A DNA stretch of 64,000 bases, taken from the IMG/VR virus record IMGVR_UViG_3300027845_000169, positions 1-64,000 of that record; one strand, 5' to 3'. Below the pieces are notes generated by a model. That model saw only the letters and a program-made list of their open reading frames with translations, had not been told where the DNA came from and did not search any database. This document shows, piece after piece, positions 6,835-62,468 of the stretch (within the stretch, counting starts at the first letter, position 1; every line of letters starts with the position of its first letter). The DNA is from a virus. Its lineage: Duplodnaviria; Caudoviricetes. Both the position numbers and the translations under genes were made by a program.

Positions 6835-7002
6835 ATGAGTGATAAAGCAGATGAGAAAACCTACATCCAGCGTGTGGGTATTTGTCGCCGATGCCCTCAT
6901 GCTAAATCCAAAATGTTAGGTTCCCATTGTGAGTTGTGCGGGTGTAATATCCGTTTGAAGGCTCGTGTGAAGGGCGAACAATGTCCTATCAACAAGTGGT
7001 GA
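6835..7002 (+). CDS. Small Cys-rich zinc-binding protein (DUF6171-like; not in ORF track)
   Basis: MSDKADEKTYIQRVGICRRCPHAKSKMLGSHCELCGCNIRLKARVKGEQCPINKW: CxxC...CxxCGC...CPxxKW. Confidence 0.65.
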   Translation: MSDKADEKTYIQRVGICRRCPHAKSKMLGSHCELCGCNIRLKARVKGEQCPINKW

Positions 7003-7033
7003 AATTAAATAGTCGTAAGGCTAATTGATTATC

Positions 7034-8350
7034 ATGCCTGTCCGTCAAGTAGGAAAAAATTGTTACCAATGGGGTAATCAAAAGAAGTATTGCGGACCAA
7101 ATGCTAAGAAAAAAGCCATTCTTCAAGGTATTGCTATTGAAAATACTGGATGGAAGGAAGCGGAGAATTGGGGACGGGTAAAATCTCATCAACCTGTTCG
7201 TGATGCAACCCGAGGTTGCTACCCGTGTCCCGATTGTGGAAATCCGATGAGGGAAACTAATTCCGGAAGTTTTGGTTATTATTGTGCTTGTTACAAGTGT
7301 GGGGCAAATTATATTACCAAACCTTTGAAAGCAGAAGAAGAAAGGTGTTGTAAAGAATGCAATGTTGCTACGGGCCTAACTACTATTCAAACTGGAACTT
7401 ACTGTTACGAGTGCTTACCAATAAACTTAGGTGCCGAAGACGACTACACGAAAACTTATGGTGAGCAGCAAGGAACTATTCGCCGGAAACTTAAGAATAA
7501 AATTATGAAACAAGCAATCATGGGAACTAAGGCCGGTCAATGGTCCGCTCGCAAGTCCCAAGAACTCAAACGGCAGTATGAAGCAGCCTGTGAAAAGAAA
7601 AGTTTGGCTCCCTACAAAGGCAAGAAGACAAGTGCTCAAAAAGATTTGACCTCATGGACCAAACAAGATTGGACTACTAAGAGTGGAAAACCTTCCAGTA
7701 AAACAGGTGAAAGGTATTTACCTAAGAAGGCGATTAAGTCCCTCACCGACAAAGAATACAAGAAAACCAGTTCAAAGAAAAGAAAGGATAGTAAGAAAGG
7801 CAAACAATTCAGCAAACAACCCAGCGGAATTGCTAAGAAGGTAGCACAATACCGTGCCGAAATAGAATCCAAACCTTATCGTGTAGTTATCTCTCGTTCC
7901 ACCAACGATGCTAAGAAATTAATGGCTGTCTTTTATGATGGAGAGGATAAGAAAGTTAAGACTACACATTTTGGAGCAAGAGGGTCCAGCGACTATACGA
8001 AACATGGAGATAAGGAAAGAATGGAAAGATACCTTGAGCGACATGGTGGAGGATTTGAAACAAGCACCAAAGAAAATTGGAAAGACCCCATGACTGCGGG
8101 TGCACTCTCCCGATGGATTCTTTGGAATAAACCCGACCTTGGCCGAAGTTTCAATGACTATTTGCGCCGCTTCAATCTCAAAGGTGAGTTAAAAGTTTCT
8201 AAGTCTGCTGAAACTGGAATTGAAAAGTTTGGAGCAACTACGAAAGAGGACTTTCTTTCTGTAACCCAAGGGGTTACAGAAAGAAAACTACATTGGGTTC
8301 CAATCTTTTGTGGTATGGGATTGGCCTTCTTGACTTTCCGTAACCGTTAA
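7034..8350 (+). CDS. Mosaic multidomain protein (Zn ribbons, DUF5872-like and DUF5754-like domains, C-terminal TM helix)
   Basis: GQWSARKSQ...WTKQDW...GERYLPKKA and HFGARGSSDYTKH...RYLERH...LSRWILW resemble small viral domain families; TTAAATAG at 7005, 29 nt before ATG 7034. Confidence 0.7.
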   Translation: MPVRQVGKNCYQWGNQKKYCGPNAKKKAILQGIAIENTGWKEAENWGRVKSHQPVRDATRGCYPCPDCGNPMRETNSGSFGYYCACYKCGANYITKPLKAEEERCCKECNVATGLTTIQTGTYCYECLPINLGAEDDYTKTYGEQQGTIRRKLKNKIMKQAIMGTKAGQWSARKSQELKRQYEAACEKKSLAPYKGKKTSAQKDLTSWTKQDWTTKSGKPSSKTGERYLPKKAIKSLTDKEYKKTSSKKRKDSKKGKQFSKQPSGIAKKVAQYRAEIESKPYRVVISRSTNDAKKLMAVFYDGEDKKVKTTHFGARGSSDYTKHGDKERMERYLERHGGGFETSTKENWKDPMTAGALSRWILWNKPDLGRSFNDYLRRFNLKGELKVSKSAETGIEKFGATTKEDFLSVTQGVTERKLHWVPIFCGMGLAFLTFRNR

Positions 8351-23517: not shown

Positions 23518-23778
23518 ATGCTACGGTGTTATGCTTGCGGTGGATTTCCTACCGAAGATGGAGATACTGAAAAGTTTGCTCACGCCGATTGGTGCGAGAA
23601 ACAAGATTGTCCCAATTGTAAGCAAGTATTTCGTGGTTATATCGGGGCGCAGAACTGTCCGTTTTGCTTAGACCCGAAAGGTAAAAAGCGATACGAGAAC
23701 GATGCAGGGGCTTTCGTGCCGTTATTAAACAGTAAAGGAAAGTCCAATTTGGACCAAGAAACAGGATTGGTGGCATGA
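23518..23778 (+). CDS. Small Cys-rich zinc-finger protein
   Basis: CYAC, HxxxC, CPNC, CPFC; TTAAGTAG at 23489, 29 nt upstream. Confidence 0.6.
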   Translation: MLRCYACGGFPTEDGDTEKFAHADWCEKQDCPNCKQVFRGYIGAQNCPFCLDPKGKKRYENDAGAFVPLLNSKGKSNLDQETGLVA

Positions 23779-24809
23779 TGAACCCTAATAAATACGCAAA
23801 GTGGCAATTAGAATGGGCTAAGTTCACCGATGATTCAGTTAAGAGAATCAAAGAATACTCGGACGATACTCACCTTGAGCGTGAATGGATGTGTTACATC
23901 TATGAACAAGACTATGGAATTATGGTTGCTGGTAAGTCAATGCCACATCTATACCGTGATGACAGCGGAAAGGAGCAAACATTCCGTAGCAAAGAAAGAG
24001 CAGAAGAATATATGGTGGGGCACGGAATTACCGGAGCCGTTACACCAGTTTATCAAATGGGGAATGTTTCATACGGTGATGAATCCCGCATTGAAGTTAA
24101 TCCGGAATCAAAATCAACCCAAGACAACGCAGTTCGTGGACTCAAAAAAGAAAATAAAAGATGGACTATCCACGGACACCCACTCAAAGACGGCAAGATT
24201 TACACAGGTCGTCAATACTTCTCATCCACAGATATTTTGGATGAATATGTGAATACAAGAGATACTAACTCACCAGTCGTTCAATTCGTAGTATTCCCAC
24301 ACGAACAAGTTGATACAAATACAGGTCGCAAAGTTTTGCACAACAGATGCAGGGTTCTTATATTCCCCGATAGTGCAACAATTCAAAAGGCTATGAAAGA
24401 AGCGTCACCAAATACGGACCCTATGGCAATCAGCCGTGAAAACGGATTCAATAAAAACCAAGCCGATGGAAGTTTGGCAAACGAAATTGGGGCTGACTGG
24501 TTCCAATTCCAAGAAGCCTTGGGTAAAATGGGTTATATGGGGATAGTTGATATTGAAGGAAAGAAAGCCGGTGGTAAGGGAGCAGAAGGCGGTTCCACAC
24601 ATCTTGATACTGAACAAAATGAGGGTATGGGAGAATCATTTGGAGCAGAAGGACAGACAGCACTATTAATGGATGCTTTGAAAGTTGGGGCTTTAGCAGT
24701 TTTCGCTTTCGTGGCGACATCCAAACTTATGGGACACATAAAAGCCTCCGAGAGCAATGTTATAGATAACATGAATGCGGAGGAGGGTCCACATTGGTGG
24801 CATCAGTAA
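23775..24809 (+). CDS. Membrane-anchored protein with JAB/MPN-like metal motif
   Basis: ERE...IHGHP...FSSTD; C-terminal TM helix preceded by FGAE. Confidence 0.55.
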   Translation: MMNPNKYAKWQLEWAKFTDDSVKRIKEYSDDTHLEREWMCYIYEQDYGIMVAGKSMPHLYRDDSGKEQTFRSKERAEEYMVGHGITGAVTPVYQMGNVSYGDESRIEVNPESKSTQDNAVRGLKKENKRWTIHGHPLKDGKIYTGRQYFSSTDILDEYVNTRDTNSPVVQFVVFPHEQVDTNTGRKVLHNRCRVLIFPDSATIQKAMKEASPNTDPMAISRENGFNKNQADGSLANEIGADWFQFQEALGKMGYMGIVDIEGKKAGGKGAEGGSTHLDTEQNEGMGESFGAEGQTALLMDALKVGALAVFAFVATSKLMGHIKASESNVIDNMNAEEGPHWWHQ

Positions 24810-38026: not shown

Positions 38027-43933
<5,907 letters not shown>

Positions 43934-50242: not shown

Positions 50243-51958
50243 TCACTCGTCACCGAGTTGGCGGAAAAGGTCGGAAATCTTGTCGCTATACTTGTATGCT
50301 GCAATCAATCCTACTACTAATCCTACACCGGCTGCCATACTGATACCGCTACCGTCTGCCTCAAAAGAGTCGGAAGGTCCAGCAGGTGGACCACCTTCGC
50401 CGGATGGGGCTTCAGTTAGTGGGTCGTAATCTAATGGGGATGGGCCGTCTTCGGCTTCATATTCATCATGTCCGCCGCAACTTGCTTCAAAACATTCTGC
50501 ACAATACAAATCTTCGGCATTACTAATGAACTCCGCTGAAAAAGCACCTGCGTCTGCATCTGCTTCGGACCAGCCAAAGTTTGCATCGGGTCCACCTTCA
50601 CCAGATGGAGATGCAGTTAGTGGGTCATAATCTAATGGATGTGATTCCATAGGGGCTGAACTTTCTTCTGCTCCGAACTCAAGGTCATAGCCCTTGCGTG
50701 TTTTCTTGGAAAGTTTCTTCTCAATTTCCCTAATTGCTCCGGATTCGGAACTCATTGCAGGGCCATACCAAGTGCGAGCACCGTAGCCAATTCTTCCATA
50801 AGCGTTAGCGGGCATAAACATACCGTTGTCTAACTTTAGAACTGTGAATAAATGATATTTGTTAGTGGAAACTCCTTCTTTCATAGTGTAGTATTTAGGG
50901 CCGAAAGCAATAAAGTTACCACGAGCAAGAGTGTAAGGTGTTCCGTTGATAAGTGCGGCCATGCCCTTGTTCACATCTCCGGGTCCGGATTGATAAACAG
51001 CCATTGCCTCAAAGTGGTCCGATGGTGCGGATTCATCCAAATGAGGTCCCGGTGTTTCGCTTAGTGGGTCATAATCATGTGCGGTTGCATCTTCAGCGTG
51101 AAGTGGTGTATAGTTAGCGTCAGCAGTTTGGCTACCGATAACATGACCGGAACCTGCTGGGAAAGTTGAAGGGTCAGCCACAACTGGCTCACCTTCTTCG
51201 GCGTAGTATTGTGTAACGCCGTGTCCGAGTGGAGCCTCAACGACTACACTTTCAACACCGTCAAAGTCTTCTAAGGAGGCGAGGTCGCCACCAAATGCTT
51301 CTGCGGAAAAAGAGGCTGCTGGTCCGCCGTCATCCATTGGAGTTTCAGCAGTTGGGTCATAGGCCATAGGCTCGGAGCCTTGTGGAGAGTCTGCGGTTGC
51401 ACTAACTGATGATTGCTCAACAACGGAGGGAGCGATTGTTTCACCGCTTTCCTCGGTGTAAGCGTTATCAACTTCGGGTTGTTCAACATCTGCTTGTTCT
51501 TCAATATCGGTTACTTCGGTTGGAGTTTCAACTCCGTCACCTTCGGCACCCATCTTAGCGAGTTTGGCCATCTTTTTCTTACCGTATTTCTTCATACCGA
51601 TAACTGCGGCAGTAGCGTCACCAATCTTTTCTGCTTCTTCCGGTGACTTACCCTTTTTCTCGTATTCTTCGGCAATATCGTCCGAAAGGTTATCAAATCT
51701 TTTTCCGGAACCAAGTTTTGGTTCTGCATCAAGAACGATGGTGTTATTTTTGGTTGCTGCGGTTACTCCGGCAGACTTCATAGAATCGTGAACGGCCTTG
51801 CTACACATAGATGTGCAATTGTATTTCTTGCCACTATCCATGTAGTGACCCTTAATTTGATATTTGCTCCCTTTGCTGGTAACCATGTGGGTTACTCCAT
51901 CAACGGTTGCATCAACCTTTCTCTTAAGTCCAACGCAATACATATTGTGTGTTGCCAT
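50243..51958 (-). CDS. Mosaic acidic protein with WGR-like domain, YDP repeats and C-terminal TM anchor
   Basis: NKYH...AYGRIG...KKTRKGY (WGR-like); four YDP[LT] repeats; many xAE delimiters. Confidence 0.7.
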   Translation of the reverse strand: MATHNMYCVGLKRKVDATVDGVTHMVTSKGSKYQIKGHYMDSGKKYNCTSMCSKAVHDSMKSAGVTAATKNNTIVLDAEPKLGSGKRFDNLSDDIAEEYEKKGKSPEEAEKIGDATAAVIGMKKYGKKKMAKLAKMGAEGDGVETPTEVTDIEEQADVEQPEVDNAYTEESGETIAPSVVEQSSVSATADSPQGSEPMAYDPTAETPMDDGGPAASFSAEAFGGDLASLEDFDGVESVVVEAPLGHGVTQYYAEEGEPVVADPSTFPAGSGHVIGSQTADANYTPLHAEDATAHDYDPLSETPGPHLDESAPSDHFEAMAVYQSGPGDVNKGMAALINGTPYTLARGNFIAFGPKYYTMKEGVSTNKYHLFTVLKLDNGMFMPANAYGRIGYGARTWYGPAMSSESGAIREIEKKLSKKTRKGYDLEFGAEESSAPMESHPLDYDPLTASPSGEGGPDANFGWSEADADAGAFSAEFISNAEDLYCAECFEASCGGHDEYEAEDGPSPLDYDPLTEAPSGEGGPPAGPSDSFEADGSGISMAAGVGLVVGLIAAYKYSDKISDLFRQLGDE

Positions 51959-61531: not shown

Positions 61532-62431
61532 TTAAAGACTCCTACCGTTGCTATAAAGCGAAGCCGAGCGTGGAACTCGGACTCCTTGCGTTATGTGTGA
61601 GTTGGGCTTATTACCCAACGCATCTCTCACGGTTCCCATTTGGGAACGGGTCAATGGTGCGGGAATATGTGATGGGCCTCCAAAGCCTCCTACTTGGTGG
61701 CGAACGCCTTGTGCGTGTATAGTAACATTAGTTGAGTTAAAAGATTGAGCGGACATCGGTTGCGACCCATTTGCGGTCTTAGCCAATGCAGGGGTCAAAG
61801 TAAGTTCTGCTCCAAAAGGTGTCATTACGCTTTCGGCGTATGAAACATCCGGAGATGTAACCATTTGACCTGCTGCTTGATTAGCAGTTTGAGGTGTAGT
61901 GAAATCGGGATTAGAGGTAGCACGGTTGGCGTGTTGAATAACAAGATTGCTGATTTGTCTTTTGAATCCAGCAGTAAAGTCATTTCTGTTTTCAATAACT
62001 CCTAAGAATCGGTTAAGTGAATAAGTCCCTTGTCTTTGGATATTGACTGTTTTGACAGTTTCAGTATCTCCGGAATCCCCTCCAAAGAATCCCATAAACT
62101 TTTGTCCCATTGTTTTAGGAACTTCTTCCACACGGTAAAGGGTCCAAACTTGTCCCGCAGGGTTAAACTCTAATTCATAACCTGCACCAATGTTTTGAGA
62201 AAGAGGTCCCATTGATTCTGCTTGGCTAACTTTACGAGTTGAAGTTGCACGAGATAACGGGTTGTTAGTCATCGTCCCTAACTTTGTTCCTAAGATTGCT
62301 TCTGCACCTTTGGCACTTGAAGAATAGGAAGTTAGTTGATAACGACCACCATGATTATCCATTACACCGTGCATAGCATTTTCCATAGGGCCACGCTTGA
62401 GGGTGTTTTGAATCGCTATATCCAAGTTCAT
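61532..62431 (-). CDS. Hypothetical (putative virion) protein
   Basis: Promoter 29 nt before ATG 62431; KGAE, SYAE, FGAE. Confidence 0.6.
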   Translation of the reverse strand: MNLDIAIQNTLKRGPMENAMHGVMDNHGGRYQLTSYSSSAKGAEAILGTKLGTMTNNPLSRATSTRKVSQAESMGPLSQNIGAGYELEFNPAGQVWTLYRVEEVPKTMGQKFMGFFGGDSGDTETVKTVNIQRQGTYSLNRFLGVIENRNDFTAGFKRQISNLVIQHANRATSNPDFTTPQTANQAAGQMVTSPDVSYAESVMTPFGAELTLTPALAKTANGSQPMSAQSFNSTNVTIHAQGVRHQVGGFGGPSHIPAPLTRSQMGTVRDALGNKPNSHITQGVRVPRSASLYSNGRSL

Positions 62432-62468
62432 GTTATTCACTACTCCTTCTCGCTACTTAAAGACTCCT

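Follow-up and report, generated by a model that had tools for sequence, protein, structure and literature searches.

The 64,000-nucleotide stretch of DNA analysed here (referred to below as the window) covers the opening 64 kb of a virus record that consists of one contig of 150,353 bp and is classed as linear (IMG/VR record IMGVR_UViG_3300027845_000169), and carries on its plus strand, at positions 7034 to 8350, an open reading frame (ORF) whose product reads as a string of discrete modules ending in a hydrophobic tail. An initial annotation, made from the letters alone, had drawn attention to recognisable small viral domains fused at junctions that close on Ala-Glu (AE), and had proposed that the short motif at those junctions (that is, the ‘tag’ of the present account) delimits the modules. 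The frame as a whole runs from 7025 to 8350 and opens at a TTG codon (441 aa), and from the ATG at 7034 it specifies 438 aa followed by a stop; the ATG is probably the true start, because a promoter-like octamer lies 29 nt upstream and relatives of the protein begin with MPVRQ or MPVRE. Residue numbers given for the polyprotein are counted from the TTG unless stated otherwise, and are converted to the 438-aa form by subtracting 3. The features of the locus, all on the plus strand, are:

7005..7012, plus strand: promoter-like octamer TTAAATAG, 29 nt before the ATG (sequence read)
7034..8350, plus strand: whole ORF, 438 aa plus stop, a putative modular tail-anchored polyprotein (translation, Pfam, relatives)
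7034..7165, plus strand: N-terminal module of 44 aa, ending in KEAE at 7154-7165 (AlphaFold2 (AF2) model, family comparison)
7166..7336, plus strand: predicted Cys4 zinc-ribbon module 1 (CPDC...CYKC), ending in LKAE at 7325-7336 (sequence, AF2)
7337..7438, plus strand: predicted Cys4 zinc-ribbon module 2 (CKEC...CYEC), ending in LGAE at 7427-7438 (sequence, relatives)
7439..7861, plus strand: DUF5872 module, ending in YRAE at 7850-7861 (Pfam, PHROG, stand-alone homologues)
7862..8212, plus strand: DUF5754 / Tlr6F module with a 10-residue spacer, ending in KSAE at 8201-8212 (Pfam, stand-alone protein P0233)
8213..8347, plus strand: C-terminal tail with a predicted hydrophobic anchor at 8294-8338 (hydropathy)

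Modules and seams of the encoded protein

All of the landmarks listed in the initial annotation are present in the translation, including GQWSARK, WTKQDW and GERYLP as well as HFG, DYTKH and LSRWILW, and the five AE dipeptides of the protein (at residues 46, 103, 137, 278 and 395) each close a four-residue tag, namely KEAE at 44-47, LKAE at 101-104, LGAE at 135-138, YRAE at 276-279 and KSAE at 393-396. Two of the modules had been likened to DUF5872 and DUF5754, and both assignments held. The DUF5754 family (PF19058) was matched by Pfam at residues 287-340 with an E-value of 1.3e-18 and an unambiguous 67.2 bits (cut-off 27.4), over positions 1-49 of a 49-position profile. The DUF5872 family (PF19197) was matched at residues 154-263 with an E-value of 8.7e-6, over profile positions 4-112 of 116, at 26.8 bits and thus 0.7 bit under the cut-off of 27.5. 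A word-index search returned 409 relatives of 240-767 aa, the best 120 of which were analysed (121 family proteins with the window’s own), and the DUF5872 module of three of these exceeds the cut-off (P0024 at 28.1, P0042 at 31.1 and P0108 at 28.4 bits), with seven others scoring 23.1-27.7 bits; the module is also 62% identical to proteins assigned to PF19197. The DUF5872 envelope lies inside the segment from LGAE to YRAE and the DUF5754 envelope inside that from YRAE to KSAE; since neither spans a motif, the placement of domains that had been predicted for these two segments was borne out. PHROG searches added two families, phrog_14910 (E 2e-28) and phrog_17747 (E 4e-7); the match to the first of them stops at R277, the residue that immediately precedes the AE of YRAE. 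A search of NCBIfam with the polyprotein returned no match.

The two Cys4 modules (CPDC...CYKC at 65-92 and CKEC...CYEC at 109-130) each contain two CxxC pairs, and the AF2 model places short strands at 72-94 and 115-124, at predicted local distance difference test (pLDDT) scores of 54-63; as modelled, both conform to the zinc-ribbon pattern of CxxC pairs flanking a short beta hairpin. At the other end of the protein, residues 424-438, WVPIFCGMGLAFLTF, make up its most hydrophobic 15-mer (Kyte-Doolittle mean 1.79) and its only strongly hydrophobic stretch. The C-terminal transmembrane (TM) helix named in the initial annotation is thus recovered as a hydrophobic segment, the length of which (15 aa) is short for a helix that spans a bilayer. 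A comparable stretch is found within the last 40 residues of 54 of the 121 family proteins, many of the others being possible fragments. Searches of this genome for paralogues of the six modules found none, which indicates that the N-terminal module is not a shared leader here.

The AF2 model of the whole protein, built from a 40-row alignment, has a mean pLDDT of 65.5, reaching 88-91 over residues 1-30 (the N-terminal module) and falling below 50 over the C-terminal tail. Four of the five tags lie within four of the seven segments with pLDDT below 50 (40-60, 95-102, 129-135 and 392-438, in 438-aa numbering), and the fifth, YRAE, ends a helix at 264-275 and falls in the lowest 10-residue block (pLDDT 61), between blocks of 81 and 85. 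When the whole 438-aa model was searched against the PDB with Foldseek, no row reached E <= 0.001, and none of the 48,161 chains compared by VIA-align scored Z 5 or above; because the model is multi-domain and exceeds 400 residues, single domains were barely probed by these searches. The weak Foldseek rows that were returned (reverse transcriptase, integrase and RNase-H-like chains at E 0.1-0.5) were set aside as offering no usable fold match.

Gain, loss and movement of modules at the tags

One account of the tags, that AE is a common helix dipeptide which recurs by chance in a protein rich in Lys, Glu and Ala, draws on the modest excess of AE itself, which is only 1.35-fold over expectation across the genome and amounts in the polyprotein to 5 occurrences against 1.9 expected from composition, a modest figure when taken alone. 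The excess is far sharper when the residue two positions before the Ala (P4, if the Glu is designated P1) is taken into account: K, L or Y occupies that position in all five cases, and the pattern [MFYLK]xAE occurs 5 times in the polyprotein against 0.53 in shuffles of the same protein. Across the 180 called ORFs of the 150-kb record, to which the genome-wide AE figure also refers, the residues enriched at that position are M (2.6x), F (2.2x), K (2.0x) and Y (1.8x), and [MFYL]xAE is found 105 times against 41.1 in shuffles (2.6-fold, z=10.1), whereas seven control patterns (xAD, xEA, xSE, xGE, xAQ, xAK and [IV]xAE) remain flat, with z from -1.4 to 1.4. These tags are unevenly distributed, with none in 111 ORFs, one in 43 and two or more in 26, the top ORFs holding 9-11 against about 1 expected.

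Three related IMG/VR records, G001 to G003 (123-166 kb), hold modules of the polyprotein family in open frames of 920-1106 aa, with matches that start or end at tags (query residues 132-276, 132-277 and 275-394), and also carry a relative of a second ORF of the window, at 23775-24809, that is considered below as a candidate enzyme. The same pattern, [MFYL]xAE, is enriched in the whole of G001 (98 vs 44.3 expected, z 8.0) and of G002 (105 vs 44.0 expected, z 9.1), and is not enriched in 974 ORFs of 80 unrelated viral loci (173 vs 182.5 expected, z -0.7); the tag is specific to this lineage of viruses. Taken alone, the 20-kb stretches that surround the candidate enzyme gene in G001 and G002 gave z values of -0.9 and 0.8, with no tag enrichment. 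Two of the three records, of 160 and 166 kb, are classed with inverted terminal repeats, which would mean linear genomes of about this size despite CheckV estimates of 61-65%, and the 123-kb one is classed as a provirus (loci L087-L089).

Within the polyprotein and ten of its relatives, 6 of 28 Pfam envelopes contain an AE and 22 contain none, so that an AE does not always mark a seam; of the six, four have G or E at P4, one holds its AE at the envelope edge and one contains LPAE. Because most of the AE dipeptides internal to envelopes lack a hydrophobic residue or Lys at P4, the tag is best described not as any AE but as a bulky residue or Lys, followed by x-A-E, in an exposed linker. With all five tags of the polyprotein falling at independently defined boundaries, the chance or compositional account is refuted by the comparative data and retains next to no probability.

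The relatives have the DUF5872 and/or DUF5754 core in common, and differ in everything that surrounds it; many are encoded on contigs of 148-166 kb, and one is an NCBI-named DUF5754 protein from a Thorarchaeota metagenome-assembled genome. Relative P0002, which is 98% identical to the window’s protein, is missing residues 48-138, that is, exactly the two ribbons, from after KEAE through LGAE. The first ribbon has no counterpart among the best 120 of the 409 relatives. The second (ending ...CLPINLGAE) is found after DUF5754 in P0004, and the signature C[LF]PINLGAE is shared by 61 of the 121 family proteins, 20 times after DUF5754 and before DUF5754 only in the window’s protein; it is followed across the family by at least 19 different sequences. 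In the same manner, GW[KR]EAE closes the N-terminal module in 23 of the 121 proteins and is followed by five different modules. The tag thus persists in these proteins while neighbouring modules change.

A cassette test, in which the 121 proteins were cut after every AE to give 733 segments and those of at least 12 aa were compared by BLAST, gave 32,516 non-self matches, 15,416 of which cover at least 80% of both segments, and resolved the segments into 75 clusters, so that each protein can be written as a string of cassettes (8-u-2-0-1-26 for the window’s own). Among 3587 internal right-hand ends of BLAST blocks, 317 fall on the Glu of an AE versus 18 one residue earlier, and 28% of block ends lie within 3 residues of an AE, the corresponding share for ten control dipeptides, of which several are more frequent than AE, being 1-12%. 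The alignments accordingly place the tags at the exact boundaries where relatives gain, lose and move modules.

Exchange of modules exactly at the tag would also be expected if the tag were the footprint of joining at the DNA level (a short site for recombination or cassette exchange, read as Ala-Glu only by coincidence). The codons argue otherwise: the Ala codons at 141 tags (GCA 33%, GCC 32%, GCT 21%, GCG 14%) are near genome usage, and the five tags of the polyprotein use GCG, GCA, GCC, GCC and GCT, hence all four Ala codons, together with both Glu codons. The use of all four Ala codons indicates selection on the peptide and not on a DNA site, and what is conserved at the -4 position is a class of residue (M/F/Y/L/K) and not a codon. 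The tag is selected at the peptide level, and joining at the DNA level is close to refuted as an explanation, with a very low residual probability.

The junctions themselves were compared one by one. After the end of DUF5872 ([YF]R), the P1 residue is Glu in 65 of 67 cases (K once, D once), P2 is A in 50, T in 5, N in 4, H in 3, S in 3 and G in 2, and the module that follows is DUF5754 in 35 and another in 32. In 71 of 72 cases the DUF5754 core is preceded, at a distance of no more than 7 residues, by an [ASG]E pair, and in 37 of these the module before it is one other than DUF5872. After DUF5754 (n=77), KSAE is found in 66, RSAE in 3, RSAD in 2 and another sequence in 1, and in the remaining 5 the gene ends there (VKRS-stop). 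Tandem tags (AETFEAE) are present among the relatives, and in P0132 and P0035 the gene ends, or a separate gene starts, at a tag. The cargo carried between seams, according to Pfam searches with ten relatives, includes Sod_Cu (9.4e-42), HD_4, PNK3P with Hydrolase_like, PolyA_pol, DUF1737, Aldo_ket_red and GNAT. In six relatives (P0022, P0024, P0026, P0031, P0054 and P0057), FRNE, FRHE or YRTE stands in place of YRAE, and between it and DUF5754 lies an acidic spacer rich in Trp (WDDVEW...WQEDVEW), which itself closes on xSE or xAE.

The termini of small, free-standing proteins provide a second and separate definition of the same boundaries. At least 7873 proteins shorter than 240 aa match modules of the polyprotein (8000 candidates scored), and pairwise BLASTP was used to compare individual cases. 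Residues 7-128 of P0156 (129 aa, with a precomputed PF19197 assignment) align to 151-277 of the polyprotein at 62% identity (122 of 129 residues, 127 columns), and residues 1-100 of P0233 (101 aa, Tlr6F-like) align to 280-385 at 59% identity over 100 of 101 residues, the alignment beginning at the first residue after YRAE. An IMG/VR scan made with the family alignment returned at least 600 stretches (599 confirmed; best 80 loci kept), and an in-frame stop falls at query positions 275-279 in 65 of the 68 DUF5872 matches of those 80 loci, the AE being at 275-276 (438-aa numbering); scans of IMG/VR with single-protein queries gave no match. As judged from these termini, the pieces between LGAE and YRAE and between YRAE and KSAE are complete copies of genes that stand separately elsewhere, and the two modules correspond, end to end in the alignments, to free-standing small viral proteins.

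The initial annotation had described these families as small viral proteins that occur, among other places, in large eukaryotic DNA viruses, and that description is borne out by the available portions of several reports. PF19058 is identified with Tlr6F (PMC12220804), a protein of no known function that is described as conserved across nearly all polinton-like viruses and also in several virophages, many ‘Megavirales’ and some phages (PMC4642659). A haptophyte giant virus encodes one DUF5754 gene and one DUF5872 gene (PMC12085832, in part), and the Atlas clusters of DUF5754 contain proteins of 103-114 aa, mostly from Nucleocytoviricota. In purified PgVV particles, a few Tlr6F peptides were reported, below threshold (bioRxiv 10.1101/2022.07.28.501842, in the part available). 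The free-standing forms in polinton-like viruses, virophages, Nucleocytoviricota and phages are homologous end to end to the modules of this polyprotein, and differ from them in being separate small genes, whereas here they are consecutive modules of what would be one anchored precursor.

Several loci outside the group display related arrangements. On an unrelated phage-like IMG/VR contig (L008), the C-terminal half of DUF5872 is followed directly by a Tlr6F-like small protein, and at L034 and L071 that half is fused to a Tlr6F-like protein without any AE tag; the order of DUF5872 followed by Tlr6F therefore recurs outside this virus group. At L022 and L060 the halves of DUF5872 read as separate genes in different frames (L022 in the frame of the query with stops between, L060 with a change of frame).

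The initial proposal that the motif is a delimiter has therefore fared well with respect to module boundaries, which are attested by insertions and deletions, by transposition and by the ends of stand-alone proteins, and the tags are almost certainly true delimiters of modules; the further idea of a protease site is still an inference, and is weighed below.

Proposed cleavage at the tags and the candidate enzymes

The best explanation of these observations, and one that is held to be moderately probable on the basis of the sequences compared, is that the ORF specifies a membrane-anchored modular polyprotein that would be cut at its tags. Six modules (the N-terminal module, two Cys4 ribbons, DUF5872, DUF5754/Tlr6F and the putative tail anchor) are joined at seams that each carry [K/L/Y]-x-A-E, a local form of the genome-wide tag [M/F/Y/L/K]-x-A-E. 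The hydrophobic tail would insert the precursor into a membrane, either of the cell or of the virion, and a dedicated endopeptidase, probably encoded by the virus, would then cut each tag, most simply after the Glu. Cleavage would release small proteins, and in relatives also enzymes such as Cu/Zn superoxide dismutase, at the place where the virion is assembled or inside the virion itself. The near-invariant Glu, the small residue at P2 and the bulky residue at P4 look like the subsites of a protease, and the tandem tags, the genes that stop or start at a tag and (by analogy) the precedent of phage SPN3US, described below, all fit with cleavage; that the tags are cut is judged somewhat probable.

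Two proteins encoded by the record may be considered as candidates for the enzyme that cuts:

23775..24809, plus strand: candidate processing enzyme, JAB/MPN-like, with a C-terminal TM helix (motif, AF2, Foldseek, VIA)
genome 81440-82633: second candidate enzyme, a HExxH (HEMAH) protein of 397 aa, in the late arm of the genome and outside the window

The first of these (344 aa) has 47 relatives among 1.84 billion representatives. It carries a Glu...H-x-H...S-x-x-D metal/catalytic motif, the residues of which (E37, H133, H135, S150 and D153) are invariant in the 4 full-length sequences, and TIHxHP...FSxxDI is kept in all alignment rows that cover the motif. The HxHP-SxxD spacer is 13-16 residues, the usual JAMM spacer being about 7. 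The AF2 model is confident over residues 1-263 (predicted TM-score 0.72), and the Foldseek rows that it returns are nearly all MPN or JAB proteins (E 1.9e-3 to 7e-2), led by the Npl4 MPN domain (1.9e-3), BRCC36 (2.7e-3) and a Caldiarchaeum homologue of Rpn11 (3.7e-3). Its VIA Z scores are 5.7-7.6 (CSN5 at 7.6; PfJAMM1 at 6.6, with a root-mean-square deviation of 3.5 over 120/130 residues), and all lie below the caution line of Z 8. A Pfam search with the protein at E up to 10 found no family, and one of 13 relatives matches DUF4329 at E 0.014, a family that we take to be a member of the JAB clan. The C-terminal TM helix is flanked by KGAE, FGAE and MNAE, an arrangement that would fit self-release of the enzyme. 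A complex predicted from its residues 1-263, a polyprotein segment (365-420) and zinc scored 0.01, and was counted neither way; a PDB profile match of its alignment to de novo designed TIM barrels, over 30 residues only, was taken as spurious. That this protein is the cutter is regarded as doubtful.

The second candidate carries no tag, is conserved at 26-27% identity in G001 and G002, and has no Pfam, NCBIfam or PDB sequence match; an Atlas feature search gives as its neighbours DUF2201_N ‘putative metallopeptidase’ clusters (score 0.90), which is no more than a lead, drawn from language-model features only. No choice is made between the two candidates, and their co-occurrence within one lineage proves little. 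Two other possibilities were tried and rejected. A GDSG-containing protein at 61532-62440 was dropped as a protease for want of a Pfam match, and a small HELGH module, which occurs in 3 of the 121 family proteins as well as in G002, cannot be the general cutting enzyme, because this genome contains no homologue of it. That module, a zincin-like WHELGH unit of 109 aa, ends some of the family polyproteins (G002 at 151891-154662, minus strand; P0094, P0113 and P0116).

Several points weigh against cleavage, or against the JAB-like protein as its agent. The proposed cleavage is read from patterns in the sequences. Dedicated searches of the 150-kb record for Prok-JAB, Trypsin_2 and Peptidase_S77 (PF03420, E up to 1) found no match, and Pfam scans of 78 + 54 = 132 ORFs, from which four ORFs spanning block ends and three longer than 900 aa were left out, contained no peptidase among the matches listed (25 families for each scan, beyond which 35 and 6 further families were matched). 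The record may itself be incomplete (CheckV completeness estimate 53%). The fold support for the JAB-like model may be described as moderate, with no Foldseek row at E <= 1e-3 and VIA Z below 8, and JAMM enzymes are known for cutting after Gly-Gly and are not known to cut after Glu. Among the tags, one relative has YRAK instead of YRAE, and an LPAE inside the DUF5872 domain of P0034 fits the tag; moreover, the family proteins are kin, so that counts of junctions are not counts of independent events. A Pfam search with eight tag-rich or candidate proteins matched only a WGR domain. That domain (E 4.1e-5) lies at residues 364-424 of a 9-tag polyprotein encoded at 50243-51958 of the window, on the minus strand, between the tags at 286 and 428.

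If the product were never cut, it would act as a single multi-domain, tail-anchored protein, its tags being read by a docking partner or chaperone or simply marking linkers that tolerate insertion. The failure to find a canonical protease, and the inferential standing of cleavage, speak for this account. An ArsA/Get3-like ATPase (PF02374, 202 bits, E 4.7e-61) is, in addition, encoded at genome positions 98253-99443 on the minus strand, in the late arm and beyond the window (locus L086). Proteins of the Get3/ArsA type bring tail-anchored proteins to membranes, and such an ATPase would suit a genome rich in terminal hydrophobic anchors, so that a tail anchor makes sense without a protease. Many phage polyvalent proteins, moreover, are transferred or packaged unprocessed, according to the part of the source available (PMC5512222). 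A docking signal, however, is not needed at every seam or in tandem (as in AETFEAE), and need not match the first and last residues of free-standing homologues; the combination of a near-invariant Glu, a variable small residue before it and a bulky one at -4 is what the subsite logo of a protease looks like, and in some relatives (P0132, P0035) a tag coincides with the end of the gene or with the start of a separate one. An uncut product is accordingly viewed as possible, though clearly the less probable account.

Cleavage at the tags by a protease of the host cell would explain why no viral protease is identified with confidence, in a record that may be a partial genome. Enrichment of the tag in three related viruses and not in other viral loci argues against a host enzyme, as does the conservation of two metalloprotease-like genes in these viruses, and this version of events is considered improbable.

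The virus that encodes the putative precursor is a marine virus of about 150 kb with an archaeal-type gene set (TFB, TBP, MCM and a PolD subunit). Pfam matches in the record include TFIIB (6.6e-44), TBP (9.2e-52), MCM and an archaeal Holliday-junction resolvase, as well as the DNA_pol_E_B fold of the PolD small subunit, ribonucleotide reductase and numerous glycosyltransferases. The 64-kb window itself gave no match in Rfam and tRNA scans. It holds 23 copies of TTAAGTAG, a sister of the octamer that precedes the polyprotein gene, where 1.77 would be expected. An ORF of 55 codons that contains two CxxC pairs, and which falls below the 60-aa threshold of the ORF list, lies at 6836-7003 of the window on the plus strand, just 5' of the polyprotein promoter octamer, and ends 30 nt before the polyprotein start. 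Elsewhere in the window, a 1968-aa ORF at 38027-43933 on the minus strand lies inside a 6-kb stretch of 56-59% G+C (genome about 43%), and is overlapped by many ORFs on the opposite strand, as expected of a compositionally odd and probably repetitive gene.

Known systems and biological meaning

The maturation of phage heads provides a precedent for tags of this kind, in that T4-like and giant phages use a short, Glu-ending motif, cut by a phage protease, in many virion proteins, sometimes with several sites per protein. The cut motifs of T4 gp21 and of phiKZ gp175 are both short and end in Glu. In phage SPN3US, the available portion of one report describes cleavage of head proteins by gp245 C-terminal to the Glu of A-x-E (P3-P1), with all of the cleavages except self-cleavage of the protease yielding N-terminal propeptides (PMC10052503). 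The motifs of such systems have the register small-x-Glu (A-x-E) or Leu/Ile-x-Glu, from which the present tag differs in that a small residue would occupy P2 and a bulky residue or Lys P4; no relative of Peptidase_S77 (PF03420), the T4 and phiKZ counterpart, was found in this possibly incomplete record; and whole functional modules would be separated here, where N-terminal propeptides are removed in SPN3US. The precursor would, in addition, be membrane-anchored, and the virus is of archaeal type.

A second parallel is offered by large eukaryotic DNA viruses, namely by the pp220 and pp62 polyproteins of African swine fever virus with their protease pS273R, and by adenovirus adenain. There, cysteine proteases of the Ulp1/adenain type process structural or core chains at a short motif in which P2 is small. 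The adenain consensus, (M/I/L)-x-G-G, is likewise hydrophobic-x-small, and the difference lies at P1, which is Gly there and would be Glu here; no member of the adenain/Ulp1 family is among the matches listed in the general Pfam scans, no dedicated search having been made. The tail of ubiquitin (Leu-Arg-Gly-Gly) is also hydrophobic-x-small-small, and so resembles the tag up to P2. The candidate at 23775-24809 resembles the JAMM/MPN+ enzymes (Rpn11, CSN5, archaeal JAMM1 and Cap3 of CBASS) in its MPN-like model and in keeping H-x-H-P...S-x-x-D with an upstream Glu, and differs from them in having no Pfam JAB match, a longer HxHP-SxxD spacer and a C-terminal TM helix; it would also need to accept Glu at P1 and to act as an endopeptidase on linear chains.

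The polyvalent proteins of phages and conjugative elements, as described by Iyer et al. in 2017, join 2-15 unrelated domains in one polypeptide for which packaging and delivery are predicted; some of them contain a zincin-like peptidase module that was proposed to release parts of the protein (PMC5512222, in the part available). The HELGH module of some relatives of the present polyprotein is a point of likeness; points of difference are that neither a motif recurring at the seams nor a tail anchor defines that class, and that the window’s polyprotein has no peptidase module. A search of the literature, at the level of titles or abstracts, for archaeal-virus polyprotein maturation proteases or a JAMM enzyme in virions found no such system, and among papers naming DUF5754, DUF5872 or Tlr6F there was none on their fusion.

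In its most specific form, the cleavage hypothesis would make the tag the cut-site code of an undescribed lineage of large marine archaeal-type viruses, read by a virus-encoded, membrane-anchored, JAB/MPN-type, Glu-directed maturation endopeptidase, a combination that is judged unlikely as a whole. If it were true, freely shuffled cargo, comprising Tlr6F and DUF5872, which rank among the most widely distributed viral proteins without a known function, and enzymes such as Cu/Zn superoxide dismutase, would be loaded on a membrane as tail-anchored precursors and then released, JAMM enzymes would acquire a new role, and Tlr6F would be given its first cell-biological context, as a delivered or virion-associated protein. 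The occurrence of Tlr6F and DUF5872 (the latter about as obscure as the former) as consecutive delimited modules, in a family whose other cargo includes superoxide dismutase, HD, phosphatase and acetyltransferase domains, suggests in its own right that the two are delivered or virion-associated proteins that work together. The seam tag thus provides a compact and testable hypothesis for a maturation system in archaeal-type viruses, as well as a practical rule by which the mosaic ORFs of these viruses may be split into functional units.

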